DNA of 64,000 nt from IMG/VR virus record IMGVR_UViG_3300024239_000017; one strand, 5' to 3'. Position numbers and translations under genes: made by a program. Shown here one piece after another: positions 1-49,801 of this stretch. Each line of letters starts with the position of its first letter. The first letter of the stretch is position 1. Under the pieces are notes generated by a model. The model searched no databases, had not been told where the DNA came from, and saw nothing but the letters and a program-made list of their open reading frames with translations. This stretch comes from a virus.

Positions 1-20
1 ATATTTTCTTTTCTATTTAT

Positions 21-54
21 TGCAAATATATAAATAATATTTGAAATATTAAAA
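21..54 (-). promoter_or_regulatory. Bacteroidota-type promoter for the next gene beyond the left edge
   Basis: Minus strand reads TATATTTGCA (21-30), matching the -7 element TAnnTTTG, just downstream of the 71..4063 stop; -33 element weak. Confidence 0.55.
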
Positions 55-70
55 TATATTAATTATTAAA

Positions 71-3000
71 TTAACATTTGACATCACTATCTTTCCAATA
101 GTCCAAACCTTCTGTATATATGGATTTATAAACTCCTAATGATTGCTCTTTTGTTATAAAAGGTACTGACGAAATATCTTTAAATAATTCAGACTCTATA
201 TAATCATTTTCTACTACATTTATATTTTCAATATTTTCTAAACTATATCTAATATCATTAGTATTTGCAGAATATGTTCCTATATTTTCTGTTGCTGATT
301 TTATTTGGTTGGGAGAGAAAACTGCATAAGTATTGTCTCCTGTATCTTCTATTAATTTAATTCCATCCTTATTATTATTTATTAAGGATTGAGTCATGTC
401 CCATTCACCTCCATCAAATAATTGCCACAACTCACTGTTTTTATCAATTCCAAACTCATATAAGAAACTTCCTTTTTCATCTTTAACTTTATAGTCTATA
501 TCTTCAGTAATTTTACTCCAATCTTCTAATTTTTTTATATTTAAAAATACTTCTTTTATATTTTTCTTTCCACCAAAGTTTTCAATCCTTACATTTGCAG
601 CATTTTCTGCATAATATTTATTTTCAGAAAAAAAATGTAATTTACTGTCTACATTATATGTAACTACACCTCCACGAATCCCTTGTTTATTAGTGAATTC
701 TGTAAATTCATTATTAGTTCCATGATAAACAACCAAAGGCTCACCGTTTTTATCTACAACTTTAGAAGCGTTTTTCGCATCGTTTTCCCAATCACCAAAC
801 CAATCTTTAAACCGTTTTGTTCTTACGTCTAGCCATTGTGCTTCGTTTAGATTAGTAGCTTTTCCATTTGGTGCTTTCATAAAAGTACCATTCGCTTGTG
901 CTTCTGCTTTTATAGCTTCCCTCTCTGATTGTATTTCTGCTAATACTTCTGGTTTTATATTACCGCTATAATCCAAATCATTATTATCAATTAAACTGAA
1001 CATTGTATTTCTATCTCTATCTCCTATAACTTTTTTAAAGGATTTAGATCTATTGTACACTTCCCTAAAGTCTTCATCTTCTAGATTATTCTTACCTCTA
1101 TATTCTGATAATAATCTTGTCCCAGCAAATGTGCCACCATCTAAATGAATAGGTTTTCCATTTTTAATTCCCCAATTGGCTTTTCTAGAAAAATCACCAA
1201 ATAACACCTCTCTATTAAGAATATAAAACATTCCGTATTTGTATAAGGTATCTATTAATTTTTGTGATTGACTATCAAAATCAATTTGAGAAAATTTTGA
1301 AAAATCTGCAAACATTTTTTCTGCCCTTTCTGTTCCTATTTGTTCTCCCTCTACATCATATGTTGGTACTAAATCCCTTGCCTTTATAGGAGGTACTTTT
1401 TCTATTATAACATAATTTAGACCTCTTTCGTATATATCAGGTAATAATTCTTCTTCTACTAAGTCATAGCTTCCCTCATAGATATTTTGCATTAGCCCTC
1501 TAGCTGTTTTTGCTATTTTTATTACCTTTGTATCGTCTAGCTCATAAACAATTCTATCAGAACCTGCGCTTATTCTTTTTAATTTGGGAATATCAAATCT
1601 TTCTCTAGCTGTAAGGTCTGTGTCGTAATCAAAACCTATTCTTCTTCCTACTCTTAGTAATGAGTCTAATTTTTCCTCATTGAACATTTCAGCATTCACA
1701 GCATATGCAAATTCTTTAACAGTCATGTTGGAAACATCTTCGGCAGTATAACCTGTTATACCTACCATATTTTTAAATGCGTTCCATATACTTTCCAACC
1801 ATTTTGCAATATCTGATTTTTTTTCTCTATTGATAATTTCTACACCATTGTTAGCTATTAACTCAGCCATTACTTCTTCCCAATAAGCATCGCTGTTTTC
1901 TTTAAGATCAGGATATAATTTATTAACTCTTTCAATATAATTCTTAACTTCTGATTTATTTTCTTTAAGTAATTTTATACCTGCTTCAAATAAATCTCTT
2001 CTGTTCTCTATTAACCATCCTATCATTGGATGTGAAAATTCGTGTATAGTAGTATTTAATACGTCATTAGATTCCTTATTAATAAATATCTGTCGTGTAT
2101 CTTTTCTATAAAATCCACCTACTACTGTAGCTAAACCATTGTCAATTAGTGATTTACTAAAACTTGTTACATTTTCTATAGTGACAGCACTATCGTCAAA
2201 AACTACATAATTAAATCCTCTTGCTGTATCAGAGGTAGCTCCACGAGAAATAGATTCTGCTGGATATTTTATACCGTCAATACCTGCTTCTAGTAAGAAT
2301 AGAGAGGCTGCTTTATCAGAGCCTAATTGTCTTGATAAGTTTTTATATAAAGCGGATCCTTCAATATTTTTAGTATTAATACCCTCAGATAACATCTTTA
2401 TTATAACGTCATTTTTAGAAATTGCCAAATCATTTATTTTTTTAAATACTTCTTCTGATACTGTATTATCCCATTCTATAAATGTATATTGTTCTGGTGA
2501 TTTACCTTTATGTACTGTTACGCTATAAAGGTGGGGTTTAATAACTGATTTTCTTAAAGCTTTTATCTCTTCGGCTATTCCTTCTAAATTTTTAATAGTA
2601 TTAAGCTTTTCTTCTTCTATTGCTTCATATATTTTAAAAAATAAGTCTTCTGAGGGTTCCTGTGAATATAACTCTAACATTTTATTATGATGATCTAAAT
2701 CGTTTATAGTTGTATATCCCTCTAATAGCATTCTAGAATCTTCCAAGTATCCTTCTAAAGTATAATACTCAAGTATTTCATACATACGTTCCTTAACATA
2801 AGAAGGTGTTACTTTAACTATAGACTTCTTTATTGAACTTATTTTCATATCTATATGACGTAATACCTCTGCCCTACTTTCACTGCTATATATACCATAT
2901 ATTCCGTTTGAGTTAAGTTTTGTAATTATCCTATTAGGTATATTTGGTTCCTTTTTTATAGTAGATAATTTATGAGCGTAATACTTTGCTATACGGTCTA

Positions 3001-4063
3001 TTTCAGTAAAGTATAATCCCCATCCGAAAGCTTGATTTCCCTCCCCTATTCCTATTTTTTCGGTAGAAAACCTATCAAATTTATGTGGAGACCCATGTTT
3101 TAAAACAAGCTCTCTCGCAATATTTTCAGAAATACCAAGTTGTTTTAATTTTTCAACTATCTCATCATTAGTCATTAAATATACGTCTGATGTAAGACCT
3201 TTATTACTTAGTACCTTTACTACATTATTTAATAATATAGTTTCATTATTTATATACTCTGGTGATTTAGCATTTAGTACTTGATTTTCGTCAAGTATTG
3301 CCCATGTTTTAAAATCTTTATAAGGAGCTCTATTTCCACCATAGAAACCGTCTATACCCTCTTCTATAGAACTATCTATTCTAGGTATTATTTTATTACT
3401 TACCTCTTCTACTTCTTCGTATTTTCTTATATTTAAAAATACTGGTTCAAGGAATGAATCTTTTGGTGCATATTTTTGCATAAAACTTTCAGAAGTATTG
3501 AAAGCATCTATTCCTGTAGAATATGTCAATGCAAGTTTTTTATCTTCTACAAATAAAGCAGTATTACTAAATCTATAATCCTGTGGTTTTTCACCGTCTT
3601 GTTTGAAACTATTATACTCATTACCATAAATTCTGTAACCTTGGAACTGTGCACCATTTATATTACTTGTTATAGTTGAAGAAACATGTCCTGACCATAC
3701 TATTTTAGGTTGACCATTTTCATCAACCACTTTTGAAGAATTTTCAGGATCATTTAACCAATCTCCGAAGAAGTTTCTAAATCTTTCAGAATAAACTTCG
3801 CTAACCAATTTGATTGCTTCTTCTTCAGAATATCCCATTTCTTTATATGTATTATAAAGAATACTTGGTTTTCCATTAGGAGCTAAATTTAATGGGTTGT
3901 TATTATTTAATTTTATTGCTTCTGATACATCTATACCTGATTGGTTTTCATCATTAATATCAAATTTAATATTATCTGTATTTGGTGTATATGAAAGGTT
4001 TACAACTTCTACTGAAGTTATATCTCCGTTATCGTTTCTATTTACAACACATTTTTTTGACAT
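71..4063 (-). CDS. Polyvalent virion cargo protein: three ART-PolyVal-like domains, HExxH metallopeptidase and protein-kinase-like domain
   Basis: APNGK..F..(F/W)FGDW..SKVVD.NG.P motif twice; HGSPHKFDRF..GEGNQAFGWGLYFT..GIDGIKY..NYVVFD; GFY..IFIN..TTIHEFSH; AGSDRIVY..VIKIAK..GDFSRKANWG..IHLDGG; lies in the cargo cluster. Confidence 0.75.
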   Translation of the reverse strand: MSKKCVVNRNDNGDITSVEVVNLSYTPNTDNIKFDINDENQSGIDVSEAIKLNNNNPLNLAPNGKPSILYNTYKEMGYSEEEAIKLVSEVYSERFRNFFGDWLNDPENSSKVVDENGQPKIVWSGHVSSTITSNINGAQFQGYRIYGNEYNSFKQDGEKPQDYRFSNTALFVEDKKLALTYSTGIDAFNTSESFMQKYAPKDSFLEPVFLNIRKYEEVEEVSNKIIPRIDSSIEEGIDGFYGGNRAPYKDFKTWAILDENQVLNAKSPEYINNETILLNNVVKVLSNKGLTSDVYLMTNDEIVEKLKQLGISENIARELVLKHGSPHKFDRFSTEKIGIGEGNQAFGWGLYFTEIDRIAKYYAHKLSTIKKEPNIPNRIITKLNSNGIYGIYSSESRAEVLRHIDMKISSIKKSIVKVTPSYVKERMYEILEYYTLEGYLEDSRMLLEGYTTINDLDHHNKMLELYSQEPSEDLFFKIYEAIEEEKLNTIKNLEGIAEEIKALRKSVIKPHLYSVTVHKGKSPEQYTFIEWDNTVSEEVFKKINDLAISKNDVIIKMLSEGINTKNIEGSALYKNLSRQLGSDKAASLFLLEAGIDGIKYPAESISRGATSDTARGFNYVVFDDSAVTIENVTSFSKSLIDNGLATVVGGFYRKDTRQIFINKESNDVLNTTIHEFSHPMIGWLIENRRDLFEAGIKLLKENKSEVKNYIERVNKLYPDLKENSDAYWEEVMAELIANNGVEIINREKKSDIAKWLESIWNAFKNMVGITGYTAEDVSNMTVKEFAYAVNAEMFNEEKLDSLLRVGRRIGFDYDTDLTARERFDIPKLKRISAGSDRIVYELDDTKVIKIAKTARGLMQNIYEGSYDLVEEELLPDIYERGLNYVIIEKVPPIKARDLVPTYDVEGEQIGTERAEKMFADFSKFSQIDFDSQSQKLIDTLYKYGMFYILNREVLFGDFSRKANWGIKNGKPIHLDGGTFAGTRLLSEYRGKNNLEDEDFREVYNRSKSFKKVIGDRDRNTMFSLIDNNDLDYSGNIKPEVLAEIQSEREAIKAEAQANGTFMKAPNGKATNLNEAQWLDVRTKRFKDWFGDWENDAKNASKVVDKNGEPLVVYHGTNNEFTEFTNKQGIRGGVVTYNVDSKLHFFSENKYYAENAANVRIENFGGKKNIKEVFLNIKKLEDWSKITEDIDYKVKDEKGSFLYEFGIDKNSELWQLFDGGEWDMTQSLINNNKDGIKLIEDTGDNTYAVFSPNQIKSATENIGTYSANTNDIRYSLENIENINVVENDYIESELFKDISSVPFITKEQSLGVYKSIYTEGLDYWKDSDVKC

Positions 4064-4065
4064 AA

Positions 4066-6093
4066 TTAACAGAATTTTATCTGGTTATCTTTTATTTCTC
4101 TTGTTTCTTTTACTTTAATTTTACCGCTACTATCAGCTACTACCTCTTCAAAAGTTGCAGGAGTATAGTCTGGTTTTTGTAGATTATAATTCATATATCT
4201 ATCACTAGTATCTACTTTTGCGTATGTATTAGTATCTACTTTTTCATATAAAGTATTATTAACTTTTATAAAATCGCTGATACTATTAGGTGCATATATT
4301 AAATTATTTTTTTTAACATATTTACCTTTAAAATTATCTAACTGATGTAAATTATTCGCAAAAAAATCTCTTTGATTTACATTGTCTATCTCGTTATCTT
4401 GATTACTGAAATATTCCAATGATTCGTTACCTGATAATTTTGAATACGTGACTAATGAATTAAACATATTCTCTGATAATAAATTTTTAATAAGTGAAAA
4501 AGAATATTCACCTATTATAGGTTTTGCTTCTATCCCTCTATTCGATATATAGAATAGTTCTGAAAGCTGTTTATTGTTAATAAGTTCTTTATTAAATTCT
4601 ATAATAAAATCATCTATATTTATTTCTTTAGATATGCCTACTTCTCTTGTTGATGGATTATCTTTTATACTAAGTAATATTTTGTAAGCTGTCAATTTTT
4701 TAATATTATTAACGTCTGATTCATCTCTCAAATAATCATTTGCTTTTGTAGAGACATATTTATCTAAATCTTCTATAAGTAGATCATTATTAATAGGTAT
4801 ATTTTTAACAGATAGAGTTCCTTTTGGAAGTAAAAAATCATTTTGTAATATTAAATCGTATAGTTCTTCTAAACTTTTAGTATTATCTATTCTTTGATAG
4901 ATATTATCATTTACTTTTATTACTGAACTTTCTTCAAATAATTTTTCCTCAGATCTGTTAGTTTCTATATTTATAAAATTACCCTCTCTATTAATTTTAT
5001 CTACTATTTTTATAACAGGTTTAGTTTCTTTATTAAAAAACAAATCGTAAGCATCTGAAAAATCTTTCAATGATTCTTTTAATGAATCATCATTAATTCT
5101 TTGTATATCTATTAAAACATTGTAATAGGAATCTAAAAAATCCATTATTTCATTATAAGACTTATTATAAAATATTTCGTCTATATTAGAAAGATCTATG
5201 CCTTTTTCAGCTGATTGCTTTTTAATATTATCTAAATATCTTTCAACTAATAATGTATCTGTTACAAAATATCCAGCTGGTAATTCTTTTATAAATTCTA
5301 TTTGATTTAATATACTATTATAATACTCTTTAACGTCTATAGTCTGCTCTAATCTAGTATATGTTGATTCTTTTTTCTCGACTATATCTCCTGAGTATTC
5401 ATCAGTTTCATAAGATGGTATAGATTGTTTATTTCTTAAATCTACTAATATTTTTTTTATTAATTCTGGATTATTTAATACCACCTCGTCTCCAATCTCG
5501 TTGGCTTTATTTAGGATTTCTTCTTTTGTTGTTAATCCTATATAATTATTGTATAAATTAGTTAGTATCATATCAGGATTTAATTTATCAAATAATCCCT
5601 TACCTAATACAACATCATATTTTACAGTATTGAAAGTTTCATCTGTGGTGTTTAATTTGTAATAAAGATTTTTTATTTTTGAAATATTTTCATAATTATC
5701 TAATTCAAGTATATCCATACCTGAAAACATTTCACTATTCTTTATTTTTTCTATATCTATGCCGAATATACCATCAACCGTAAATATATTTAAAAATTCA
5801 GTTTTAAAATCTTCTATATTTTTATCTGTTGTTGATAGATTTAGAATATCAATTCTATCCGAATTATTCAAATTGTTAGAATTGATTATATTATCGGCTT
5901 GATTAAAAGCTAGAATATTTTTAAGCGTTGGTTTAACATTTTGTGATTTAAATTCATCTAATAATGTTAACCCATATAAATCTAAAGCTTGTGCTGTATT
6001 ATAATTTGTATATACCAATAATTCCGTCATTAATTTCGGATATGTTTTAGCACTAGGTATATTATTCTTAAAAGTTATTTCGCATTGTGACAT
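4066..6093 (-). CDS. Putative virion cargo protein, 675 aa; start re-assigned to ATG at 6093 (MSQCEITF)
   Basis: The 37 codons upstream in the ORF track run through a promoter and terminator (6098-6173); ATG lies 4 nt after TACTTTTG. Confidence 0.7.
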   Translation of the reverse strand: MSQCEITFKNNIPSAKTYPKLMTELLVYTNYNTAQALDLYGLTLLDEFKSQNVKPTLKNILAFNQADNIINSNNLNNSDRIDILNLSTTDKNIEDFKTEFLNIFTVDGIFGIDIEKIKNSEMFSGMDILELDNYENISKIKNLYYKLNTTDETFNTVKYDVVLGKGLFDKLNPDMILTNLYNNYIGLTTKEEILNKANEIGDEVVLNNPELIKKILVDLRNKQSIPSYETDEYSGDIVEKKESTYTRLEQTIDVKEYYNSILNQIEFIKELPAGYFVTDTLLVERYLDNIKKQSAEKGIDLSNIDEIFYNKSYNEIMDFLDSYYNVLIDIQRINDDSLKESLKDFSDAYDLFFNKETKPVIKIVDKINREGNFINIETNRSEEKLFEESSVIKVNDNIYQRIDNTKSLEELYDLILQNDFLLPKGTLSVKNIPINNDLLIEDLDKYVSTKANDYLRDESDVNNIKKLTAYKILLSIKDNPSTREVGISKEINIDDFIIEFNKELINNKQLSELFYISNRGIEAKPIIGEYSFSLIKNLLSENMFNSLVTYSKLSGNESLEYFSNQDNEIDNVNQRDFFANNLHQLDNFKGKYVKKNNLIYAPNSISDFIKVNNTLYEKVDTNTYAKVDTSDRYMNYNLQKPDYTPATFEEVVADSSGKIKVKETREIKDNQIKFC

Positions 6094-6097
6094 ACTG

Positions 6098-6153
6098 CAA
6101 AAGTATAAAAAAAATTTAATATTACAAAAAGTATTAATATTTATATTAAAAAA
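6098..6153 (-). promoter_or_regulatory. Late-type promoter cassette, copy 1 (56 bp identical to 18740-18795)
   Basis: TTTG..TACTTTTG on the minus strand; exact direct repeat. Confidence 0.8.
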
Positions 6154-6173
6154 CCTCTCTATTAAAGAGAGGT
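6148..6173 (-). terminator. Intrinsic terminator after the 1953-aa gene
   Basis: acctctct/agagaggt stem followed by a U6 run on the minus strand. Confidence 0.8.
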
Positions 6174-6178
6174 CGTTT

Positions 6179-9100
6179 TTAACACATATTGTCTTCTGAT
6201 TCAAATATCCCCTTCATGTCTACAGTGCTTATACTTGATACTGCTTTTTCTGGAATATCTTTAGTTGCTTCGTTTATATTATCACCTAATTTGAATACTA
6301 ATTTATTACTCATAAAAGGATCTTCCATATTTATGTAAATAGTTCTATCTGATTTAAGTAATTCTTCTTCACTTGAAATGTCTATTGTATCATACACATT
6401 TGATAATGTATTTTTAATACTATTCAGATTATAATTTTCACTAGTTACTGCTGTAGATTCATTTAATAAACCATAAGTGTCTAATAAAGCGTTTAGTTTA
6501 AAGAATTTTGCTTCTTTACTTATAGAATCATTCACTATATTGTCTACGTCAGCATCTAAATCTACATTTTCAGGCTTAACATTTATAGGAAAAGCAATAT
6601 TATTATTACCGTATTTGAAAACTACAATAGGTGATTTTTTACCTGATTTAGTTAACGGTCTTATATATTGGTCATTATCTATTTTTATATCGCCTTTAAA
6701 AGTTTTAACTACCCCATCATTATCTACATATCCATAAGAAACCACTTTAGATTCGTCTATATTGTTTTCTATTGGTTTGGAATCTGATGTCAATTGTATT
6801 ATAGGTAAACCTAGGTAAGATTTATCTACTTTTATTGAATATGTTTTAGTAGGATTTTTAATCACTTTTTTTCTCAAAGCTTTTAATTCCGCCCATTGTT
6901 TAGAAGTAGTATTATCCGTTCCTTTAAGAATTTGCACTAACTTACCGTTATGTTTAACATATATTACACCTTTTGATTCATATTCTGTAGAAGATAATCC
7001 CTGGTTATAGTCGTTATTAGGATCAAATTCTAAAGTTACTTCATCGCCTGATTTTAAGCTATTTAAAGCTTCCTTATCAAACATTATCTGCGTTCCATCA
7101 GAAGTTACTGTAAACTCAGATTCTTTAGGGCTCAGTGTTCCGTCAGAGTTAGTAGAATATAATAAAACATAACTACTAGGTTGACCCGTTATAGCATATG
7201 CTTTAAGTCCAAGTAATGATAAAAAAGTATCTATATTACCCTCTATTGAGAAAGCTGTTTCATTTATATTTTTTACAAGATAATTATCTTCTGATAAATT
7301 TACTTTTATATTATTTTTACCTTCGTATATTTCTGATACATACTCTACATTTTCATCATTTATATCTATCTTCTCTAAAATATTTTTATTACCATTAGAA
7401 TCTATTTCATAAACCACTATTTCAGGAGTTAGACCATTTTGTAAAGCACTATTAAGTATTGAAGATAGTTTTATATGTGATAATTCATATCTATCTCTTC
7501 TTTTTTTAATATAAGCTCCGTCATAAACTAAACCTGTTTTTTCTGATCTATACCCTTCGTCCAGTTCTACATTTTCTACTTGATGTATCAAGCTATTTAA
7601 CTGCTGTTCAGAAGTTTCTATATCCTGTTGTTCAGAAGATTCTTTTATATTTTTAAGCTGATTATAAAGATTTATTACATCTAATAAACTTACACCTTCG
7701 ATAAATAAGTTATTTACTATATTAAAAGGAGATAGTTTTTCTCTTAATACTGCTAATCTTTTTTTATCAGTAGAATTTCTATTTTTCTTATTAGACAATT
7801 CTATTAATTCATCTATATCTTCTTGCTCTGGTTTACCTATATTTGCAAGTGTTTCTACATCAGTAAAATCACTCTCATATGAATTTTCTACTACCCATTT
7901 AAGTTGCTCATAAGGTGAAGAATTAGGATCGAATTCACTTACAGGATTTTTAATAGAAGCCAGTTCCATTTTTAATAAAGTAAGTTTCTTTGTAGCCGAA
8001 ACATTGTCGTCCACTAAACCAAGAAGTATATCATTAGATAATTGTTCAATTTCTTCTTCTATTCTTATTTTTTTAGCAATAGAATCTACTTCACCATTTA
8101 ATCTTGCTATCTCTTCTTCTAACCTTATTACTTCTTTTTGTACTAACTCTACTTTTTTATCCTCTAGTTCTGATAATTTGTTTTTCAAATCTGATTCTAG
8201 TATTCTATTTTGTCTGTCTATTTCAGAGATTCTAGAATTTCTATCCTCTGTTTTAGAGATAAGTTCTTCATAAAGTTTTTCAACTTCAAGAACTCTTTCT
8301 GCAAGTTCTCTGATTTCTCTATTTTTTTGTTCTGTGAATTCATTTTCTAATTTATTTAATAAATGATTATATACTATTGCATCTGCTGTACTACCTTTAA
8401 AAGAAATTATTCTTCCGTTTCTAGCTTGTAACTGTACAACATAGTTACCATTTTTATCTTTAAAAATACTATTATCTATGGTGCCATTTCTTAAAGTTAC
8501 TTTATATAATTTACCGTTTATATAAGCTTCATTTCCCTCAATAAGTATGTCATCTTCCTCTAGTTTTTTAAGGTCTTTGATGTTAGAAGTATCTACTTTT
8601 TCTAATGGAAGTGTTTCTTCTTGTATATCTACTATTTCATCTTCATTTACTATCTGAAGTATACCTTTATTTATTTCTAGATTACCTACTATTACATCCC
8701 CATTTGGTTTTATATATTCATACTGAGTATAATTACTTTCTTTAACGGTACTAATATTTTTTTCAATTGTTTGTTTAGGAACTAATTGATTTTCAATACT
8801 CTCTATTTTAGACTCTATTTCTTTTATTTGATTATTAAGGTCTTCAACTATAGGATCTAATTCATCTGTAGTAATTACTTCTTTTTCATTTAAATCGTCT
8901 ATTTGTTCTTGTATTGAAGCTATTTTCTCACTTAACTCTTCATTAAATTCTCCATTAAGTATATTTGATAATTGTACCTTATTATAATTTAATTGAACAG
9001 TTTTTAAATCTATTATTAATGTCTTATTTTCAGTATATGTTTTATCAAAATTATCAATTAATTTTTTATGATTTTCATAGTACTTTTGCTCTAATTCAGT

Positions 9101-12040
9101 TAGCTCGTTTTTACTATTTAATTTATCATATACATGTTTAATATCTGAAGCTGTTGGTTTATAGTCTTCTGACAATTTATCTTCTGTAATTACCTCTTTA
9201 GTTTCTTGTAAAGACTTATTTTTTATATACTCGCCCTCAACATATTTATTAAACAATTGTTTTAATGTATCTCTAGTTAAATCATTAATTGATTTATTTT
9301 TCTTGGCTCTTAATGAACCAAATAAACCATTATATGATTTTGGAGAAAATTCTTGATTAGTTATATTATTTATTAGATCAGAATATGATTTATAAGCGGT
9401 TGTAGCATTGTCATATTGATTAAATAATTTAGATAATAATATCTTATCATTTGGACTTAATTCTAATCCTTGTATAGCTTTATTTAAGTCGTTTACTTCA
9501 TTATCAAAATTATCTAAATCTATTCTACTAGCATAACCAGTCTTACCCATTTTTGAGTAGAAATTATCTAATATTGTTTTTTCTAACATAGATAATTTTT
9601 CTGATGCTTTAGATAACTCTTCCTGTGCTAATGCTATATCTCTATTAAGTTTAATTTTTTGTTCTGCTGATTCTGGAGAAACTTCTTTATTATTAAGTTT
9701 CACCATTTTATCTGTAAGTCTACTTATTTTACCCTTTGCTTCACTAACTATTTTGTTTAGATTGAAATAATTTTCTCTTTCTAAATTAGTCATATTTTTT
9801 AAAGCAGTTATAGCACCAAGTTTTTCAGAAATTTCTTTTCCTGCTAATGTCTGTGATAATTTATTTTGTATAGCATCAAATGTTTGTGATGCAAATCTTT
9901 CATTAAATTTAGACATTGCTGTTGAGAAAGCTAAAGCATTTGATAACATTTCTCCGTTTACTTGAACAGTTTTATCACCAACTTTAATATCTGATAAACC
10001 TGCTGTATTATTTCCAAAAATATATCTTCCAGCTTTTAAAGCATTACCATAATCATCTGATAATTCATTTATATACTGAATTTGTTCATTTTTGTAATCT
10101 TCCACTTCTGATAAATCAAGACCTGTATTATCTGCTATGACTTGTGGATCTATACCTTTTATGGTATCTACCATATTTTTTACAAATACCTCTTCTTTTC
10201 CTATACTATGATATGCGTCAAGCATTGACACCATTGTCTGAGCTTGTAAAGAAGCTTGAAGTAATTTATCCTCACTATTTTCCGCTTTACTTAATTTTTC
10301 ACTAAGTGCTTGAAATCTATTAGCGTGAGAAAATAATGCTGTAGTCCACTCATTAGTGTACTGGTTAGATGAAATTTCATTAAAGAACTTATCACCTTTA
10401 TTATAAACTTCCGCTATTTTTTCTTGCGTTTTATATTGTTTAGAAACAGTTTCATTACCTGTTACAGTTCCTACTCCGCCCATAAGTCCACCTATTAGTG
10501 CACCTATTATTACTTCCTCCCTACCTTCTTTTGTGCCAAACTGATCTTTCATGGCCTTACTAAAGGCATCTATGTAGTTTGATGTGACATTTGTATATTT
10601 TGGATCATAAGAACTGGCAACATAATTTTTATATGTATTACTGGCTACACCTTGCATTCCCTCTTCATATACACCCTCTACAAGACCGCCTTTTATAATA
10701 GGTGATGCATAAGCTAATGATTTTTGCAAAAGAGTTGGTTTTAGAGCTTTGTAAATTCCTTCGGAAGTTTTCTCTACACCCATTCCTAGTAATGCGCTAT
10801 TTAATATTTTACCGTTACTAGTTACAGCTTTTGATAATGGATTACTTAAATTTAAAAAATTACCCATCATCATTAAATTAGATGGCATTAATATTGCCAT
10901 ATTAGCAAAAAATACACCATTTGCAGAACTACTTAACTTATCAGAAAATTTGTTTATTTCTTCCTCTGTAGGAGTTGTACCTCTTTCTCTATGAAAATCC
11001 CAAAATTTCTGTTCTGCTTCTTTAGCATAATGTCTCGCTTCAAAACCAGCTTCGTATAAAGGTGATGTTAAAGCAAATCTTGTTTTTACTAACATGTCAC
11101 CCATTTTACCTTTGCTAGCTACTTTAGCTAAATCTTTAGAAGCTGTTTCTCCTAGATTTGACATTATACCTTTAAACCAATTAGCACCTTTACCTATATT
11201 GCTTTCTACTTTTGATGCTACAGTCATTTCAGGTGTAGTCATTAATCTAAGGGCTCTAGCTACTTTATTACCTTTGGATACTAATTCTCCTGTTTTCAAT
11301 GCAGATCTCGCTGCTGTAGAAGATAAACTTACACCACCTGTAAGTGTTGCTAGTATAGCTTCTGCGGCAAGTAATCTAGTAGTAAATTCTGCTCCGCCTA
11401 AAACTTTATCAAATGTTTGTAGATTAAGTCCTAAATTTTGTTCTCTTTCTACTTCATTATAATAATTTTTATAATCGAAATTTGTTTTTGTAGTTAAATC
11501 ATCTACCCATTTCATATAATCATTATCATATATGGCATCAAATCTACCTGATATTGCAGCCGCCCCTATTCCATAAACACTTCCAACTAAATCCAATGGT
11601 GCTTTTGCTGTATTGAAAAATAATCTTTTTACAGGATTCATAAATTTTTCAAAGTCAGTTTGCATTGCTGACAGTCTAGCATCATTATCTACACCATAAA
11701 CATATGATTTATATTTAGGTGTCCATTTAGCTGAATCTAATGCTGATTGTTCATGAGTATCCCTAATATCAATAGTTCTATCAATATCTATTTTATTTTT
11801 ATTTGGAAACGCACTCTCTACTATACTATCAGCGCTTTCACCCAGTTTATTAAAAGAGTCCATTCTTTGTAATGAATCAAACCTAACATTATTGGTGAAC
11901 GCCAATGTTGCTGGATCTGGTACAGCAGGTGCTGTTGGTAGATTATTAAGATCCATTCCGTCTACTTGTGTAGACGGTGGAACTATTGTATCAGTGAAAC
12001 TTGATGTATTTATTTGTGGTAAATAACTATTTGGATCCAT
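6179..12040 (-). CDS. Large internal virion/ejection protein, possible membrane-channel component
   Basis: 1953 aa; hydrophobic Gly/Ala segments (AEAILATLTGGVSL, IIGALIGGLMGGVG), long coiled coils; downstream of muzzle as in crAss-like phages. Confidence 0.65.
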   Translation of the reverse strand: MDPNSYLPQINTSSFTDTIVPPSTQVDGMDLNNLPTAPAVPDPATLAFTNNVRFDSLQRMDSFNKLGESADSIVESAFPNKNKIDIDRTIDIRDTHEQSALDSAKWTPKYKSYVYGVDNDARLSAMQTDFEKFMNPVKRLFFNTAKAPLDLVGSVYGIGAAAISGRFDAIYDNDYMKWVDDLTTKTNFDYKNYYNEVEREQNLGLNLQTFDKVLGGAEFTTRLLAAEAILATLTGGVSLSSTAARSALKTGELVSKGNKVARALRLMTTPEMTVASKVESNIGKGANWFKGIMSNLGETASKDLAKVASKGKMGDMLVKTRFALTSPLYEAGFEARHYAKEAEQKFWDFHRERGTTPTEEEINKFSDKLSSSANGVFFANMAILMPSNLMMMGNFLNLSNPLSKAVTSNGKILNSALLGMGVEKTSEGIYKALKPTLLQKSLAYASPIIKGGLVEGVYEEGMQGVASNTYKNYVASSYDPKYTNVTSNYIDAFSKAMKDQFGTKEGREEVIIGALIGGLMGGVGTVTGNETVSKQYKTQEKIAEVYNKGDKFFNEISSNQYTNEWTTALFSHANRFQALSEKLSKAENSEDKLLQASLQAQTMVSMLDAYHSIGKEEVFVKNMVDTIKGIDPQVIADNTGLDLSEVEDYKNEQIQYINELSDDYGNALKAGRYIFGNNTAGLSDIKVGDKTVQVNGEMLSNALAFSTAMSKFNERFASQTFDAIQNKLSQTLAGKEISEKLGAITALKNMTNLERENYFNLNKIVSEAKGKISRLTDKMVKLNNKEVSPESAEQKIKLNRDIALAQEELSKASEKLSMLEKTILDNFYSKMGKTGYASRIDLDNFDNEVNDLNKAIQGLELSPNDKILLSKLFNQYDNATTAYKSYSDLINNITNQEFSPKSYNGLFGSLRAKKNKSINDLTRDTLKQLFNKYVEGEYIKNKSLQETKEVITEDKLSEDYKPTASDIKHVYDKLNSKNELTELEQKYYENHKKLIDNFDKTYTENKTLIIDLKTVQLNYNKVQLSNILNGEFNEELSEKIASIQEQIDDLNEKEVITTDELDPIVEDLNNQIKEIESKIESIENQLVPKQTIEKNISTVKESNYTQYEYIKPNGDVIVGNLEINKGILQIVNEDEIVDIQEETLPLEKVDTSNIKDLKKLEEDDILIEGNEAYINGKLYKVTLRNGTIDNSIFKDKNGNYVVQLQARNGRIISFKGSTADAIVYNHLLNKLENEFTEQKNREIRELAERVLEVEKLYEELISKTEDRNSRISEIDRQNRILESDLKNKLSELEDKKVELVQKEVIRLEEEIARLNGEVDSIAKKIRIEEEIEQLSNDILLGLVDDNVSATKKLTLLKMELASIKNPVSEFDPNSSPYEQLKWVVENSYESDFTDVETLANIGKPEQEDIDELIELSNKKNRNSTDKKRLAVLREKLSPFNIVNNLFIEGVSLLDVINLYNQLKNIKESSEQQDIETSEQQLNSLIHQVENVELDEGYRSEKTGLVYDGAYIKKRRDRYELSHIKLSSILNSALQNGLTPEIVVYEIDSNGNKNILEKIDINDENVEYVSEIYEGKNNIKVNLSEDNYLVKNINETAFSIEGNIDTFLSLLGLKAYAITGQPSSYVLLYSTNSDGTLSPKESEFTVTSDGTQIMFDKEALNSLKSGDEVTLEFDPNNDYNQGLSSTEYESKGVIYVKHNGKLVQILKGTDNTTSKQWAELKALRKKVIKNPTKTYSIKVDKSYLGLPIIQLTSDSKPIENNIDESKVVSYGYVDNDGVVKTFKGDIKIDNDQYIRPLTKSGKKSPIVVFKYGNNNIAFPINVKPENVDLDADVDNIVNDSISKEAKFFKLNALLDTYGLLNESTAVTSENYNLNSIKNTLSNVYDTIDISSEEELLKSDRTIYINMEDPFMSNKLVFKLGDNINEATKDIPEKAVSSISTVDMKGIFESEDNMC

Positions 12041-14972
12041 TTATTACTGCTTTTATTCTTTGTTGTATTAAGTCTGTTGCTAATTTTTCTGATATTGCAT
12101 CTAGACTGTTTCTATTATATACCGCATCTTGTGGTTCAGACATATAAATCAATTGGTTATTTTGTCTAGCAACTATAGACCATTTATCGTTTATAGGTTC
12201 TGTACTTATATTAATAGGGGTACTTAATATATTCTTTATTTCTTCTGAGTATTTATTTATAATCTCCTCTCCATAAACAGCTTTGAAATTTTTGTAAATA
12301 TCTTCTTGTGTTACAGGAGGATTCTTATAAGCCTCGTATCTTTTTTGCTCTGGTAGATAATCTATGGTTTCCAAGAAAGATTCTTTGTTATCTACAATAT
12401 CTACTGTTTTATTATATTTTACTGCGTTTGGATTAGAAGCTGAGTATATAGATTTTTTATCTTCAAAACTAACGGAATTTATTACTTGTGGTGGTAAATC
12501 CTCTATTTTAATATTATCAAAAGTCTGTGTTTCATATTCATCACCGTCTTTTACTGATGCTATTATTTTAGCCATCCCTTTTTCCTTATCCACTACTATT
12601 TTAAGATTACTATCTTTTTCCAATTGAGTCCCTGTTGGAAGAGAAGCCATTATATCTGGCATCATTTTTTTAAACTTGTCATCTCCTAAATATATGTTTA
12701 GTGATTTAGGTGCGTTGTAGGAATAATCTGTCAGTTTATTTGAGTTATTTTTTACAGTATTTTTAACTCTTTCTTTAAATTGCGCAGTATTAAATCCGAT
12801 TTTATCAGTATCTATATCCCTACTGTCTAATGACTCTAAGTTTGTATTGGCATTTAACAAATCTCTATTACTTGTTTCTATTGTTGAACGAATCCCTCTT
12901 CTGTTAAAAGAACCATCTCTTATGTTTTTAAGATAATCATTGAAATCTTTTGCGTATGTAGAATTGGAATCTGAATTTAACATTTTTTCAAAAGTTTGAG
13001 CATAAGTTAAATACTTACTAATTTCTGTACCTACGTTTGTTGATAATAACTCTTGCGTAAATTTTTCCAATACTCCCTTGCTACTATAATTAGAAGTGTA
13101 AGTTAATTTATTTACAATATCTCTAGCTTTGTCTGAAGATATTTTATTTCCTTTTTCATCTTTAATGTTTTGGGCTTCTATTGATATTAATCTTTTTATT
13201 TGCATTTTTTCTGCGGCGGACATATCCTCATCCATTAATAGTGTATTATATACACCTATTACTTGAGCTGCTTTTGCAAAATTATCATTTCTATTATTTA
13301 ATACCGTTCCTTTTACAACATTTCCTTCTTTATCTATAGTATAACCATTATTAGCATATTCTAGTATTTTTTTAGTATCTTCTTTTGTTTTTGGAGATTT
13401 TATACCCTCTAAAAATTTCAAACTATTACTTCTTATATTACCCAACCCTTCATCTATTTTTCTAAGTGCCCCTACTGTTGATTTTGTATTATCAATAATT
13501 GCTTTACTTTCTTCTGATAAGTGATCATAAAGTACTCCCATTTTCCCTGGAGCGTTTACTAATCCCCATGCTAATGATTTTGGATCTTTTGCTTTTGCTT
13601 TTACTGATTCTAAAAGTTTTTCATTTTTAGGATCGTTAAGTATTTGCTCTATTTCAGATGTAACGGTAGTATTCATTAATTTAGAATTTTCTGTATTCTG
13701 TTTATCAGCTTTTACAAAACCGTCTTCTACTTCAGCATCCTCTGGGTTAAAAGGTTCATCTCTTGTTGGAATTTTATTTTGATTAAAAGGATTATTAGGA
13801 TTCTCAACAACTGTTCCATCAGGATTAAGATCAAACCCTATTTTATTATACTCTAATTTTAATTTCATGAATTCCTGTTCAGAATCCATATTCATTTTAT
13901 CACGGTCAAGTTGATTTTTTATATCATCTTGACTCATATTATAATTGAATTTTGCTATTTCAAAACCACTATTATCTACAAAAGAATCTACTAATCTATC
14001 ATAAGAAAGGAAACTGGTATTTTTTGCATAAAAATTATTAGTATAAAGTTTATTTATGATATTATCTCTGTTAAACGCTGTTTTTTTATCATCTAGTAAA
14101 TTAGATTTAAAACTATCTAACTTATCTATTTCTTGTTTTATTTGATTTTTAATAGTTGAATTTGTTGGTTTTGTTAATTGCAAATTTAACTCTGCCTTTC
14201 TATCCTCTATATAATTTATATTGGCGTCGATATTACTATCATAATCTGCTTTAAGTTCCTCGTCTTTTTTATCTCTATATGTGTACCACCCATCAATATA
14301 TAATTGATTTTTAAGTTCAGGTGTCATCATCATATCTATAAAATCCTTAGCAGTTTCCATAGATATTTTTTCCTTTTTACCTATTCTTGTAAACCAAGAA
14401 TTTCCTCCTATTTCATCATAATGATATTCTACACCAAAATCTTTAAGTATTTTAGAGTTTTCTAATATATGTTTCTGTACGTCTTTGTATGGTACATATG
14501 GTCTAGCATTATATTTATCTCCTGCTTCTTTAGAAGAAAGGTATCTATTTAAGTCTGCTGTAGCGAATTCTTGATTCTGTAGTGACCACATATCAGGCTT
14601 AGTTTTCTTAATATTTTCTATCTCCTCTATTTGTTTTCTATAAGCTTTTGTAGAAGCAACTGCATTTAATACCTTTTCATCTATAGCACTTGATATATAT
14701 GACTGAACTTCATTTGTTATATTCTTTTTAGACCAGTCTCTTGTGCCTGATTCATTTATATAACCTACTATACTTTTTAATCTTTCTCCAAGATATTCTT
14801 TATCCACATCTTTTAATAAATCTGTATTACTATATTGATTTATTAATTGCTGGGTTTGCATCGTATTTACATCATAGTTTTGTTGTAAATACGTTGCTGC
14901 TTTTCCCAATGTATTAGATATGTCTAGCTGTACTGGATCTCTATATGTATCTATTCTATATGCTGTAGCCAT
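12027..14972 (-). CDS. Internal virion cargo protein
   Basis: 981 aa, helical, no Cys; synteny with crAss-like cargo genes. Confidence 0.6.
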   Translation of the reverse strand: MATAYRIDTYRDPVQLDISNTLGKAATYLQQNYDVNTMQTQQLINQYSNTDLLKDVDKEYLGERLKSIVGYINESGTRDWSKKNITNEVQSYISSAIDEKVLNAVASTKAYRKQIEEIENIKKTKPDMWSLQNQEFATADLNRYLSSKEAGDKYNARPYVPYKDVQKHILENSKILKDFGVEYHYDEIGGNSWFTRIGKKEKISMETAKDFIDMMMTPELKNQLYIDGWYTYRDKKDEELKADYDSNIDANINYIEDRKAELNLQLTKPTNSTIKNQIKQEIDKLDSFKSNLLDDKKTAFNRDNIINKLYTNNFYAKNTSFLSYDRLVDSFVDNSGFEIAKFNYNMSQDDIKNQLDRDKMNMDSEQEFMKLKLEYNKIGFDLNPDGTVVENPNNPFNQNKIPTRDEPFNPEDAEVEDGFVKADKQNTENSKLMNTTVTSEIEQILNDPKNEKLLESVKAKAKDPKSLAWGLVNAPGKMGVLYDHLSEESKAIIDNTKSTVGALRKIDEGLGNIRSNSLKFLEGIKSPKTKEDTKKILEYANNGYTIDKEGNVVKGTVLNNRNDNFAKAAQVIGVYNTLLMDEDMSAAEKMQIKRLISIEAQNIKDEKGNKISSDKARDIVNKLTYTSNYSSKGVLEKFTQELLSTNVGTEISKYLTYAQTFEKMLNSDSNSTYAKDFNDYLKNIRDGSFNRRGIRSTIETSNRDLLNANTNLESLDSRDIDTDKIGFNTAQFKERVKNTVKNNSNKLTDYSYNAPKSLNIYLGDDKFKKMMPDIMASLPTGTQLEKDSNLKIVVDKEKGMAKIIASVKDGDEYETQTFDNIKIEDLPPQVINSVSFEDKKSIYSASNPNAVKYNKTVDIVDNKESFLETIDYLPEQKRYEAYKNPPVTQEDIYKNFKAVYGEEIINKYSEEIKNILSTPINISTEPINDKWSIVARQNNQLIYMSEPQDAVYNRNSLDAISEKLATDLIQQRIKAVINGSK

Positions 14973-17960
14973 CTATTTTAAATATTTCTTTATATTTTTA
15001 GAAAGTAGTAATCCACCTCTTTTTTTATTTTCTTTTTTATCATTTACTTTTTCAGCTTTTTCAACCTCCTTAGTATTAGGATTAATTCTATATAATTGAT
15101 CATTATAATAAAAAACATTTGGATCTCCTACTTGTGTTACTTGTCCAAGACTATTAATTTTATAATTAGGGTTTATAGCGTTGAAAGTATTAACTTGGTT
15201 TTGTAAATTCCAATTATTAACATTTTCAAGATTTTTCTTATCTATATAATTTCTCCAACTTGCTATGAAATTGTCTTGTGCATCTTGCGCAGACTTTTCA
15301 TATTCGTCCATTTTACCTGTATTATAAATATCTCTTTTATTTATTCTTTCCTCATTTATATTTTCAACATTCCTTCTATCTTGTGCATTAGCCATTGAAG
15401 TGCTATAATAAGCTTGATTTATAGCATCATTGGTTTGAGCTTGAAGATTAGCCATCGCAGCTCCTGCTGTATAAGGATTATTTTCCATTATCATAGAAGA
15501 AGCAGTATTATACTTTCTATTTAACTCTCTTATTGTTTCTTCTGGTGAAACATATATAGGAGTAGCCTCATAACTTCCGATTGTTCTAAGAGAAGGTTGA
15601 AGTAAATTAGGAGGTAAATTAGATTGATTTGGTACTAATAAAGGCATTGTGTTACCATTATTATCCTGTCTTACTGAAGGTGGTAATCCAACTTTAGACG
15701 TAGATGTATTGGTATTATTTGAAACAGCTTCTTTATCAGAAGAAACTTTATTAGTAATAGGATTAAAATATAGTCCTGTTTTATTACTTGAGTATATGGT
15801 TTTACCGTTTACGTCTTCTACTTTTTTATAATCTCCTTCTTTTATAAAATTATCAAGTTCTTGTTGATTATTAAAATTTACGTCTTGTACATCTGCGAAT
15901 CTATAAAACCATTTATTATCTACAAAGTTAGAATCTACATATTTTTTATAAGCCTCTTCATTAGTAGATCTCTTATCAGTTATTAGTTGTATAAGTTTTC
16001 CCATATTTTCTTTGGGAACCATACTCTGAGAACCTACCAATATCTTATTATCTTTTACCTTTACACCTAAAGCTTTAAGTTCTTCTTGATTAACTAAACC
16101 GTTATCCAAAGCTGTTTGTAATCCTTTTTGTGTTGGGGCGACATTTGAAGAGTAGTGTTTAGAAGTTTCTGGATATGTTTCTGTAAATTTTTTCTGTGCT
16201 AAACCAGCCAACTTATCTTGTCCTTCTTGTGTCGCTAACTCTTTGGAATCATACGTTATCCCTAATCTATCTAAAATAGTTTTAAGTCTTTCTCCTTGTT
16301 TTTTAATATCACCTTTTTCGTAAGTCGGATCCCAAGTATAACTATCTATTATTTTTTTGAAATCTCCTACTTTTAGACCTGCTTGTGCGTATTCAACTGT
16401 ACCCTCTTCTGTTCCCTCGTCATTAGACTTATCATCAACTTGTTGTGATCCTTGAGATTGTTGTAATTCTCCTACCATTTGTGATATGGCTTGTTCTAAT
16501 TGAGAATCATCTAATTGTTGTAACTGTTGTACTATTTCAGCTGGATTTTGTCCTGTTAACTGTGAATAAGCTATTATTATCTGCTCTAATTCATTTGAAG
16601 ATTCTTCTTGAGGAACCATCTGTTCATTATCAGAGGGTTGTGCTACTTCACCACCTTGTTGTTTTTTAAAGTTATATCCACCGTCTTCTTTACTTTCCTC
16701 TTGTCTATTATAAACATAGTTTGTAAATACTTCTAATTCACTCTCTAGTTCTTTTTTAGATACTTCAATTTCTTTAAGTTTATTAGTAAGTAATTCCATA
16801 TTAACACTTTTAGAACCTTCGAATTCAACGTCTTGTTGCTTATTTATTTTTTTATAAATATCTTCTTGTTGTTCTAAAATATCAGTTAATCCTATTTTTT
16901 TCTTATATTTATCTATTACTGTTGAAAATGTATTTGAATGTTTTGTATTTATATCAAATTCTTTTTTAAATTCTGTTGCTAACTTTGAACCTATTTTTAA
17001 ATAATCTGATATTACTTTTGTGCCGTCTGGTACATTCAACATTTCTCCACCTTGTGAGTGTTTATTCCCTAGAACTTCCATTGTAGAACCATCGGGTGTC
17101 TGTAAATATTCTCCTTTTTCAACTTCTACATTTGGATTAGGATGGTCTTCATTACCTTGAATGAAATTTCCTGTCATCATTTTCTCTACTTCACCACCTT
17201 TTTGCATATAAGATCTTCTAGCTTTATTTTGTGCATCAATGAGATCTTGTTCTTTTTCATTAGCGGCTTCTTGTAATATCTTATAAGCTCCTGCTCCTGA
17301 TAAAGCATTTCTTGCTCCTGAAAGTAATAATTTTCCTGAGGCTCCAACTACTCCTAAAGCATTTTTATCTTGTGCAAATGCACCTAATGCAGTAGCTGTA
17401 TTTTCCATATTCCAACCTCCGTAAGGATTTATAGGACTTGTAAACGCTCCGTTATTACTATTAACATTATTTTTCTGTACTTCCTCACCAGCTTTTCTTT
17501 GAACCTCGTTATAATCAACAGGTACATCTAAAGCTGTAGCCATCTTGTCTTTTTGTGACGCTTTATATTTCTCTGCTTCAGCTATATCTTCCATAGTAGG
17601 AGGTAATATAGTAGGTGCGCTCGTTAAATATGGAGACGGTGACTGGTTACCGTATACTGTGATTCCTTCTAAAGAATTATCTATAGGAGGTATTACCAAT
17701 GGGCTTTTGATTTTTCCCCAATCCGCTTGAGCATATGGAACTTCTAATACACCTTCTACATCATTTTCAAACTGTATGTCTGAATCTCCTGGTTTTGCAA
17801 TCTTTTTTCTGTTATATTGTGGTACTCCATTTACAATAGGAACAAGCGTCAAACTTTTACTAACACCTTCCATAGTAATTAAATTGCCTGGGATAATATT
17901 ATAACTCCTATTTGAGTGTGGAGAGTTATCTTTATAACCTGTTATTGATAGATTGTTCAT
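14973..17960 (-). CDS. Internal cargo protein (crAss cargo protein 1-like) with repeated QxGG motifs
   Basis: EVEKGEY..GNKHSQGGE domain; YMQKGG, KKQQGG, YAQAG, KKRGG; Q-rich segments. Confidence 0.65.
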   Translation of the reverse strand: MNNLSITGYKDNSPHSNRSYNIIPGNLITMEGVSKSLTLVPIVNGVPQYNRKKIAKPGDSDIQFENDVEGVLEVPYAQADWGKIKSPLVIPPIDNSLEGITVYGNQSPSPYLTSAPTILPPTMEDIAEAEKYKASQKDKMATALDVPVDYNEVQRKAGEEVQKNNVNSNNGAFTSPINPYGGWNMENTATALGAFAQDKNALGVVGASGKLLLSGARNALSGAGAYKILQEAANEKEQDLIDAQNKARRSYMQKGGEVEKMMTGNFIQGNEDHPNPNVEVEKGEYLQTPDGSTMEVLGNKHSQGGEMLNVPDGTKVISDYLKIGSKLATEFKKEFDINTKHSNTFSTVIDKYKKKIGLTDILEQQEDIYKKINKQQDVEFEGSKSVNMELLTNKLKEIEVSKKELESELEVFTNYVYNRQEESKEDGGYNFKKQQGGEVAQPSDNEQMVPQEESSNELEQIIIAYSQLTGQNPAEIVQQLQQLDDSQLEQAISQMVGELQQSQGSQQVDDKSNDEGTEEGTVEYAQAGLKVGDFKKIIDSYTWDPTYEKGDIKKQGERLKTILDRLGITYDSKELATQEGQDKLAGLAQKKFTETYPETSKHYSSNVAPTQKGLQTALDNGLVNQEELKALGVKVKDNKILVGSQSMVPKENMGKLIQLITDKRSTNEEAYKKYVDSNFVDNKWFYRFADVQDVNFNNQQELDNFIKEGDYKKVEDVNGKTIYSSNKTGLYFNPITNKVSSDKEAVSNNTNTSTSKVGLPPSVRQDNNGNTMPLLVPNQSNLPPNLLQPSLRTIGSYEATPIYVSPEETIRELNRKYNTASSMIMENNPYTAGAAMANLQAQTNDAINQAYYSTSMANAQDRRNVENINEERINKRDIYNTGKMDEYEKSAQDAQDNFIASWRNYIDKKNLENVNNWNLQNQVNTFNAINPNYKINSLGQVTQVGDPNVFYYNDQLYRINPNTKEVEKAEKVNDKKENKKRGGLLLSKNIKKYLK

Positions 17961-17964
17961 TTAC

Positions 17965-18735
17965 TTATATATTTAATTTTATATCGTTGCTTAATACTGA
18001 TTTTGATAATGGTACTGTAGATAAAACTTGTTGTTTTTCCAACTGTTTTTGTTTTAAAACTTCCTCTATATATTTATTTTCTTCTTCTACCATTTTTTTA
18101 TTCTGTTCTTGTACTTTCCTTTCTTCCTCTAATTTAGAATCTCTTATGTATTCTTGCTCTGTTTTATAAGTATTCATTACTGTATTTACAAAATCTGGAC
18201 TTTTTTGATATAATTCTTGTGTTTTACTATCCGTCCAATCTATTACACCGTTTTGCATACCTTTGATTATATCAGTGTATTCTTTTAAATAAGGATTTTC
18301 ATAATTATTGCCGTAATCATTAGATAATGAATTGTTATTTGTTATTCTATCTATATATTCTTTATTATATCTTCCCCAGTTAGATTTATCTGTTCCACCA
18401 TGGTATTCTCTTATTGCCGTATAATAATCTCCATTATTTCTATCTGCCGATTCTTTTAATAAATAGGCCGCCGCTAACGAAGCCTGATCTGGATTCCAAG
18501 CGTCTACACCATACTTTTTAAGTACATTATTTCTAGTTGAAGGAATAAACTGATATACCCCTTTTGCATTAGCACTTGACACCTGGTTTTCATTAGATCT
18601 TTCACCTAATAATCTTACAGACCTTAATATATGTAATGGCACTCCTGTTTTTTTAGAAGCTATTTCATCTGTTTTATCGTAAAAAGGGTCGGTGTATTTT
18701 CTACCACCTTTCTGTAAAAACTGTTTTAATCTCAT
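17965..18735 (-). CDS. Virion-associated lytic transglycosylase (SLT domain)
   Basis: GERS..VSSANAKGVYQFIPST..AAYLL..AIREYHGG SLT motifs. Confidence 0.85.
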   Translation of the reverse strand: MRLKQFLQKGGRKYTDPFYDKTDEIASKKTGVPLHILRSVRLLGERSNENQVSSANAKGVYQFIPSTRNNVLKKYGVDAWNPDQASLAAAYLLKESADRNNGDYYTAIREYHGGTDKSNWGRYNKEYIDRITNNNSLSNDYGNNYENPYLKEYTDIIKGMQNGVIDWTDSKTQELYQKSPDFVNTVMNTYKTEQEYIRDSKLEEERKVQEQNKKMVEEENKYIEEVLKQKQLEKQQVLSTVPLSKSVLSNDIKLNI

Positions 18736-25084: not shown

Positions 25085-25085
25085 T

Positions 25086-49553: not shown

Positions 49554-49566
49554 CTATTTATTTTTA

Positions 49567-49600
49567 TGCAAATATAAAAAAATTTTTTGACATATGCAAA
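49567..49600 (-). promoter_or_regulatory. Conserved-spacer promoter (GCATATGTC class), leftward
   Basis: Minus strand TTTGCATATGTCAAAAAATTTTTTTATATTTGCA. Confidence 0.85.
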
Positions 49601-49642
49601 TATATTAAAAAAATTTTAATATTAATTTTTAAATTAACATTT

Positions 49643-49675: not shown

Positions 49676-49677
49676 AA

Positions 49678-49799: not shown

Positions 49800-49801
49800 A
49801 A

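Follow-up and report, generated by a model that had tools for sequence, protein, structure and literature searches.

How are large phage cargo proteins that are encoded by separate genes kept in order as they are packed and ejected? For crAss-like phages, the ordering and ejection of megadaltons of cargo has been stated as an open question (PMC10172136). The question is raised by a 64,000-nucleotide stretch of viral DNA (IMG/VR record IMGVR_UViG_3300024239_000017; here called the window) that encodes three consecutive long proteins whose only cysteines lie at or near their ends. A sequence-only reading had proposed that each C-terminal cysteine bonds to the N-terminal cysteine of the next gene product, giving a head-to-tail ejection chain. 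The features of the locus, in window coordinates, are as follows.

18818-25997, minus strand: crAss-type muzzle and ring-1 genes (PF25731, PF24228).
12027-18735, minus strand: upstream Cys-free virion/cargo genes encoding proteins of 981 aa and 995 aa and a 256-aa SLT protein.
6179-12040, minus strand: member 1 (the head), 1953 aa; homologue of phi4:1 gp038, crAss001 gp47 and phi14:2 gp67.
6182-6184, minus strand: Cys1953, the sole cysteine of member 1 and putative donor of junction 1|2; invariant in the homologue alignment.
6152-6174, minus strand: intrinsic terminator-like hairpin between members 1 and 2.
6098-6105, minus strand: TAnnTTTG promoter element right before the ATG of member 2.
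4066-6093, minus strand: member 2, 675 aa, in the place held by the virion RNA polymerase in Crassvirales.
6082-6084, minus strand: Cys4 of member 2, putative acceptor of junction 1|2; an invariant column in 84 homologues.
4069-4071, minus strand: Cys675 of member 2, putative donor of junction 2|3; an invariant column in 84 homologues.
71-4063, minus strand: member 3, a 1330-aa polyvalent effector with two ART-PolyVal modules, a HExxH zincin motif and a kinase-like stretch.
4001-4063, minus strand: N-terminal beta-hairpin half of the member 3 acceptor domain, with Cys5 (4049-4051).
110-223, minus strand: helical half of the member 3 acceptor domain, aa ~1281-1318 (acceptor profile, E 1.6e-9).
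74-76, minus strand: Cys1330 of member 3, putative donor of junction 3|4; close relatives are continuous and Cys-free here.
23-30, minus strand: TAnnTTTG promoter-like element before member 4.
1-2, minus strand: first two bases of the member 4 start codon; the remainder of the gene is in contig L005 (6126-11579).

Since muzzle and ring-1 genes lie upstream, the chain block sits in a crAss-like tail and cargo module, after the muzzle and two cargo genes. Member 1 has a Gly-rich hydrophobic N-terminal region, whose strongest segment (aa 510-528) is the one that is clearly hydrophobic. This protein had been read as the membrane channel, an assignment that is doubtful: Bayfield et al. expect the channel to be formed by crAss001 gp45 and gp46, which correspond in position to the 995- and 981-aa proteins. 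Close pairs of internal cysteines occur in crAss001 gp45 (residues 390/398; L008:16988-19516) and phi14:2 gp69 (369/378; L009:28984-30246); the equivalents in the window phage are Cys-free. In member 3, PF18760 matched two ART-PolyVal stretches (E 9e-26), the HExxH zincin motif lies at aa 674 and the kinase-like stretch was judged by eye only. Elsewhere in the window, a phage-encoded GroEL gene and its neighbor (50383-52332) follow an ORF-free stretch of ~830 nt (49554-50382).

We take TAnnTTTG to be the consensus of the Bacteroidetes-type -7 promoter element. Since terminator-like and promoter-like elements lie between the chain genes, the link between their products need not rest on one transcript. 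Because homologues begin there, and because the terminator and promoter element lie just before it, we place the start of member 2 at ATG 6093. TTG 6204 was considered as a start and rejected, as full-length homologues begin with M-x(1-2)-C at ATG 6093. A block of ~45 nt ending in TAnnTTTG recurs as a near-exact repeat at window positions 18790-18736 and 6140-6094 (minus strand), just ahead of the SLT gene and of member 2; in both cases no more than 4-5 nt separate it from the ATG. Transcripts from this block are possibly leaderless.

Recounting confirmed that the 1953-aa protein (6179-12040, minus strand) contains one cysteine, residue 1953, that the 675-aa protein (from ATG 6093) contains two, C4 and C675, and that the 1330-aa protein contains two, C5 and C1330. 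The 981-, 995- and 256-aa proteins upstream have zero cysteines, also as first read, and are outside the cysteine chain. The 1953-aa protein lacks an N-terminal cysteine, which fits a place at the head of a chain. For the other end, a chain had been expected to continue into a gene beyond the left edge with an N-terminal cysteine and to finish in a cargo gene without a C-terminal one. Contig L005 (Logan), which has 0 mismatches to the part of window positions 1-6200 that it overlaps, bears out both: the next gene encodes the last member (1817 aa), with Cys4 as its sole cysteine and none at its C end. This protein, member 4, is a homologue of phi4:1 gp035, crAss001 gp49 and phi14:2 gp65 and has a degenerate zincin motif.

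The chain has four members, totaling 5775 aa (~661 kDa): a head with a C-terminal cysteine, two middles with cysteines at both ends and a last member with an N-terminal cysteine only. Because the outer ends on both sides are Cys-free, the chain is closed, as a linear head-to-tail link predicts. Since cysteine makes up 1.1% of the window's other long ORFs, ~44 cysteines would be expected in the 3958 residues of the first three members. The probability that five randomly placed cysteines would all fall within five residues of an end is ~2e-11, although this was calculated post hoc. The terminal-cysteine pattern is genuine and far beyond chance.

The terminal cysteines are conserved in orthologues, both in 150 member-2 homologues and in ~190 related loci. 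The member-2 homologues came from 1.8 billion representatives searched with an HMM; scanning viral contigs with a single sequence gave no matches. Cysteines were present at both ends in 128 of the 150 homologues, with the rest mostly fragments, late start calls or fusions, and internal cysteines numbered 18 in 155,001 residues. In 84 aligned homologues, C4 and C675 were the only invariant columns, in an alignment with a mean column identity of 15%.

The ~190 loci were dereplicated at 60% identity for end counts. Heads carried a C-terminal cysteine in 35/35 cases and an N-terminal cysteine in 1/43, a split piece. For middles, the N-terminal cysteine was present in 34/35 and the C-terminal cysteine in 37/38, while last members had an N-terminal cysteine in 43/45 and a C-terminal cysteine in 0/37. 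Chain proteins contained 20 internal cysteines in ~240,000 residues. The genes directly upstream of heads contained 3 cysteines in 30,087 aa, with a C-terminal cysteine in 1/39. Across ~130 clusters, cysteines were kept at inner ends and missing at outer ends. Cys-poor ejected proteins might by chance tolerate a few cysteines at floppy ends, and cysteine suppression is known in ejection proteins, with cysteine loss described in N4-like phages (PMC11445570). However, inner-end invariance together with outer-end absence in ~130 clusters, at 15% mean column identity, leaves this explanation a negligible likelihood.

Apparent exceptions were traced to TTG or GTG starts (L127, L162, L184, L189), to frameshifts or a lone stop (L147, L166, L090) and to contig edges (L136, L194, L196, L158). 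After these artefacts were removed, L016 and IAS virus remain as exceptions. L016 (10001-17434) is the one clear exception among middles: member 2 is fused to polyvalent domains and has an N-terminal but no C-terminal cysteine, with no adjoining last member. In IAS virus, a break lies beside ambiguous bases and the downstream piece lacks an N-terminal cysteine.

The loci also differ in other respects. In a large, near-identical clade (L060-L132), kilobases of other genes lie between member 2 and the last member. Internal cysteines number 2-3 in this clade and up to 9 in IAS virus; their purging may be less strict in phages of anaerobes. At L188:425-15904, the gene order is member 2, head, last, and the cysteine pattern is still that of head, 2, last. 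More distant phages (L187, L190-L193, L197, L199, L200, L203) keep the terminal-cysteine rule; their acceptor ends are unlike the hairpin domain, and several have a polymerase motif. At two unrelated loci, a small gene that appears ferritin-like by eye lies between chain genes (L026:12583-13086; L199:8802-9296).

The cysteines vary in position, from 3 to 9 residues from the N end and from 0 to 7 from the C end. This variation bears on the possibility that an enzyme or self-reaction ligates the ends via the terminal cysteines, through a peptide, thioester or isopeptide bond, to yield a true polyprotein. Such a reaction would suit the zincin motifs of the block and the cysteine pairs that, as described below, are in register with the peptide bond they replace. 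Ligation chemistry normally requires a fixed terminal residue, whereas here the cysteine position floats and the flanks have no common motif, making ligation very improbable. Binding of a shared metal ion (Zn or Fe) by facing cysteines, possibly from two junctions and without a disulfide, is also improbable. Although metal binding would work in a reducing cytoplasm with no need for oxidation, and the particle contains each cargo protein in several copies (PMC10172136), there is one cysteine per end with no conserved His, Asp or Cys co-ligand column, a single cysteine per side suffices at new breaks and the sole solved case was modeled as a disulfide.

The cysteines come and go with the gene boundaries. 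Fusions of members 1 and 2, 2 and 3, and 3 and 4 all occur in relatives, none with a cysteine at the seam, and a cysteine pair is present at three different breaks where relatives run on without cysteine. The region of the break between members 3 and 4 of the window phage is continuous in L003, L058, L059 and phi4:1, and the two cysteines at this break are in register with the relatives' linker. A quick tree, built from the last 700 aa of 29 chosen rows and rooted at the midpoint, requires at least two changes in the state of junction 3|4; it gives no direction of change. In phi4:1 and L139, junction 1|2 lies ~165 residues further along, within member 2; the former seam has become continuous, and the new cysteine pair lies in a loop that is unbroken in the window phage. 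In L026, the head is split in two, with an extra cysteine pair at the cut. The pattern is also kept where the genes are reordered (L188) or inverted (crAss001) and where kilobases of other genes have been inserted. The earlier idea that towing would follow gene order strictly had to be revised, since in L188 and in the inverted block of crAss001 the termini set the order instead. Tails of heads were separable from tails of middles, with 47/54 classed correctly, which fits junction-specific recognition.

Pairs that are gained at breaks and lost on fusion are expected if chain continuity is selected. They are harder to reconcile with the view that real disulfides are static staples, which lock the packed cargo core (for its stoichiometry, and for stability once outside the cell) and which either break or have no role during an ejection that is ordered by packing alone. 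The sequences do not discriminate between towing and stapling, the bond of cyanophage A4 is described as stabilizing a pre-ejectosome contact (PMC12002296) and oxidation after lysis fits a role in particle stability. However, staples would not have to be confined to facing termini in a strictly linear sequence, the pairs arise exactly at lost peptide bonds and vanish on fusion, and the equivalent three parts in N4-like phages are a single Cys-free polypeptide (PMC11445570, PMC13434306). We consider stapling rather unlikely.

To see how the ends could meet, we examined structural models. In the model of member 2 (pLDDT 90.8), the N-terminal hairpin and helices are folded and residues 661-675 form an unstructured tail, which is free and does not dock on the N-terminus of the same protein. 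Among 48,161 solved chains, the best match to the acceptor domain was the N-terminus of the phi14:2 polymerase (6vr4_B residues 2-93), a modest match (Z 4.5, rmsd 3.3, 74 aligned); the next match had Z 2.7. A complex prediction for the phi4:1 middle tail with the N-terminal domain of the last member, run without controls, scored 0.02 and weighs neither for nor against docking. When a read-through junction (L150, stops as Gly) was modeled in AlphaFold as a tethered chain, with no control, the acceptor domain had pLDDT 87-94, the tail helix 74 and the cysteine stretch 55.

In member 3 the acceptor domain is bipartite, with the hairpin at the start, the helices at the end and the effector modules between. 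Member 3 homologues range from 438 to 1391 aa in all, and the insert differs among relatives. At L006:11396-12712, member 3 is only 438 aa and its insert, which has no ART modules, is TnsA-type endonuclease-like by eye. As this insert is unlike the ART modules, the acceptor-domain slot swaps cargo. Segments of the form APNG...FGDW that precede each ART-PolyVal module resemble the helical half of the acceptor domain; they lie at window positions 883-721 and 3883-3750 and, in member 3 residues, at ~61-105 and ~1064-1100.

Because the ends of member 3 form one domain, C5 and C1330 may be close, as in a reading in which the N and C ends of each protein bond to one another; alternatively, each cysteine could attach to some other shared molecule, for instance the portal or a host factor. 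We give this pair of readings very little credence. The head and last members own a single cysteine, always on the inner end. Unsplit member 3 relatives keep C5 only, leaving the member 2 tail as its sole candidate partner. Moreover, the pairs come and go together, and the member 2 model lacks self-docking.

Taken together with the A4 analogy, the sequences make it likely that head-to-tail disulfides link the chain members. As first proposed, this interpretation has held up well: its sequence predictions were all borne out, the cysteine pairs track gene splits and fusions, and a disulfide in A4 provides a precedent. We also lean toward the view, with less assurance, that the disulfide chain serves chain-wise loading and ejection; towing is less certain than the bond. 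For the window phage, bond pairing, oxidation timing, towing and release are what we infer, and virion location and disulfide chemistry are taken by analogy from relatives. The four gene products are probably packed in the head and injected.

A model that accommodates these data is that three intermolecular disulfides (C1953-C4, C675-C5 and C1330-C4) would join the members into one thread, each cysteine pair substituting for a peptide bond. Where the junction is old, a flexible tail would dock on the small hairpin-and-helix acceptor domain at the N-terminus of the next protein; where the break is new, the halves of the cut domain would keep the cysteines together. The bond would form in the assembled particle, most simply via oxidation at or after lysis. 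In this way, proteins expressed separately could be packed, and could pass the narrow tail, as a single chain running N to C, with the hydrophobic head first, then the effectors and the zincin-like member last. Purging of internal cysteines would prevent wrong bonds, and once on the cytoplasmic side the links would be cleaved by thiol reductants of the host. Assembly in a reducing cytoplasm counts against a disulfide chain, as does the life of gut relatives without oxygen. Searches of the window for a gene encoding a thiol oxidase or thioredoxin-like protein were negative, as was a CxxC scan of phi4:1.

Member 2 occupies the polymerase place, and we looked for traces of a polymerase. The DFDxD motif was absent from the 118 and the 150 member-2 homologues, and a polymerase profile had no match in the window, in L005 or in 141 of the 146 kb of phi4:1. 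Profile-profile comparison of member 2 with polymerases gave no match, nor did a Foldseek search of member 2 against the PDB. Comparison with both ends of 6vr4_B gave a weak match (Z 6.5, rmsd 7.1, 310 aligned), and member 2 also had weak matches to polymerase N halves in BFVD. The top VIA rows for member 2 were set aside as generic helical bundles. Since the structural match to 6VR4 is weak and there is no profile match, it is only a possibility that member 2 is a gutted polymerase.

We tentatively suggest that crAss-like and Lightbulbvirus-like phages may share a general, re-evolvable rule of exchanging a peptide bond for a disulfide. The product would be a polyprotein of 0.5-0.7 MDa that passes the tail in fixed order and is cut by reductants, with cassettes riding along. 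If this is true, any cassette flanked by a terminal cysteine pair could join the chain, and a lineage could carry anti-host effectors where others carry RNA polymerase. How the three polymerase-associated proteins of crAss-like phages relate to the one polypeptide of N4 is, according to a 2026 paper, unresolved (PMC13434306). A terminal-disulfide chain, for which the residue pairs can be named in three cultured phages, would settle this point as well as the cargo-order question. It would also turn the lone A4 bond into a general principle, explain the free splitting and fusing of chain genes and let chain members and their order be read from sequence.

The closest cultured relatives of the window phage are the syntenic Cellulophaga phages phi4:1 and phi17:2 (Lightbulbvirus). 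Their gp038-gp037-gp035 follow the same cysteine rule and, as in the window phage, no RNA polymerase was found; unlike the window phage, they have three members and no polyvalent insert. In phi4:1, gp038 has C1957 only, gp037 has C4 and C516 and gp035 has C3 only, and all three are annotated as virion proteins by MS/MS.

The rule extends to the Crassvirales, where members 1 and 4 have remote homologues. Member 1 matched gp47 and gp67 by blastp (E 6e-11 and 3e-5; profile E 7e-21), and member 4 matched gp49 and gp65 by profile (E 4e-38 and 2e-10). The crAss001 chain is gp47 (C2339), gp50 (C5, C2404 and one internal) and gp49 (C5), that of phi14:2 is gp67 (C1797), gp66 (C3 and C2179) and gp65 (C3), and cr112_1 follows the same terminal-cysteine rule. 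In Suoliviridae, where the first two genes are fused, the fused protein has no N-terminal cysteine and there is one junction. The Crassvirales block has a polymerase, while the window phage has the 675-aa protein and the polyvalent effector in that place. The crAss001 tail contains disulfides, its cargo is mostly unresolved in the map and its ejection order is ascribed to packing and mutual interactions (PMC10172136). A preprint on gp66 reports fusion of the three proteins in certain phages (bioRxiv 10.1101/2020.03.07.982082; PDB 6VR4). These two papers on the block (PMC10172136; bioRxiv 10.1101/2020.03.07.982082) do not mention the terminal cysteines.

The virion RNA polymerase of N4 and DEV (Schitoviridae) is likewise ejected and Cys-free, and the order of its parts as described matches the chain: a hydrophobic N-terminal part, a payload and a C-terminal part with a zinc-binding/zincin motif (PMC11445570, PMC13434306). 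It differs in being one ~3500-aa polypeptide with zero cysteines and a T7-like polymerase. Along their bodies, the chain proteins are nearly Cys-free, as in N4/DEV-type ejection proteins. Like the polyvalent proteins described by Iyer et al. (2017), member 3 joins ART-PolyVal, zincin and kinase-like modules among virion genes; that description includes no cysteine or disulfide tethering as a delivery route (PMC5512222).

The nearest precedent for the bond itself is cyanophage A4 (A-4L, a cyanopodophage), where a cryo-EM map shows a disulfide between gp27 Cys1715 and gp26 Cys5 (PMC12002296). In the pre-ejectosome, the C-terminal helix of gp27 inserts into a cleft of gp26, and the bond is described as stabilizing this contact; the study also suggests that a chain reaction takes place when the proteins are ejected (PMC12002296). 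Our sequence check found that these are the only cysteines of the consecutive genes gp27 and gp26. There is thus one virion in which this sequence signature has proved to be a disulfide between two proteins. As in the window block, the genes are consecutive ejection genes with lone cysteines at facing ends; in A4 these lie two residues from the C end of gp27 and at residue 5 of gp26. A4 gp27 and gp26 had no match better than E 0.015 to three chain profiles, and A4 serves as a precedent by analogy. A4 has one link between two proteins and belongs to another phage family, with a host of another phylum; the window block would have three links, with variable chain length and movable junctions among its relatives.

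The claim of novelty therefore stands in part. A single terminal link was already known from A4, while we found no description of a three-link chain in crAss-like phages in the literature searched, which included few subscription papers. What is new is the proposed three-link, movable, modular chain; the window contributes a form with four members and no detected polymerase, together with an effector cassette and a split of recent origin.
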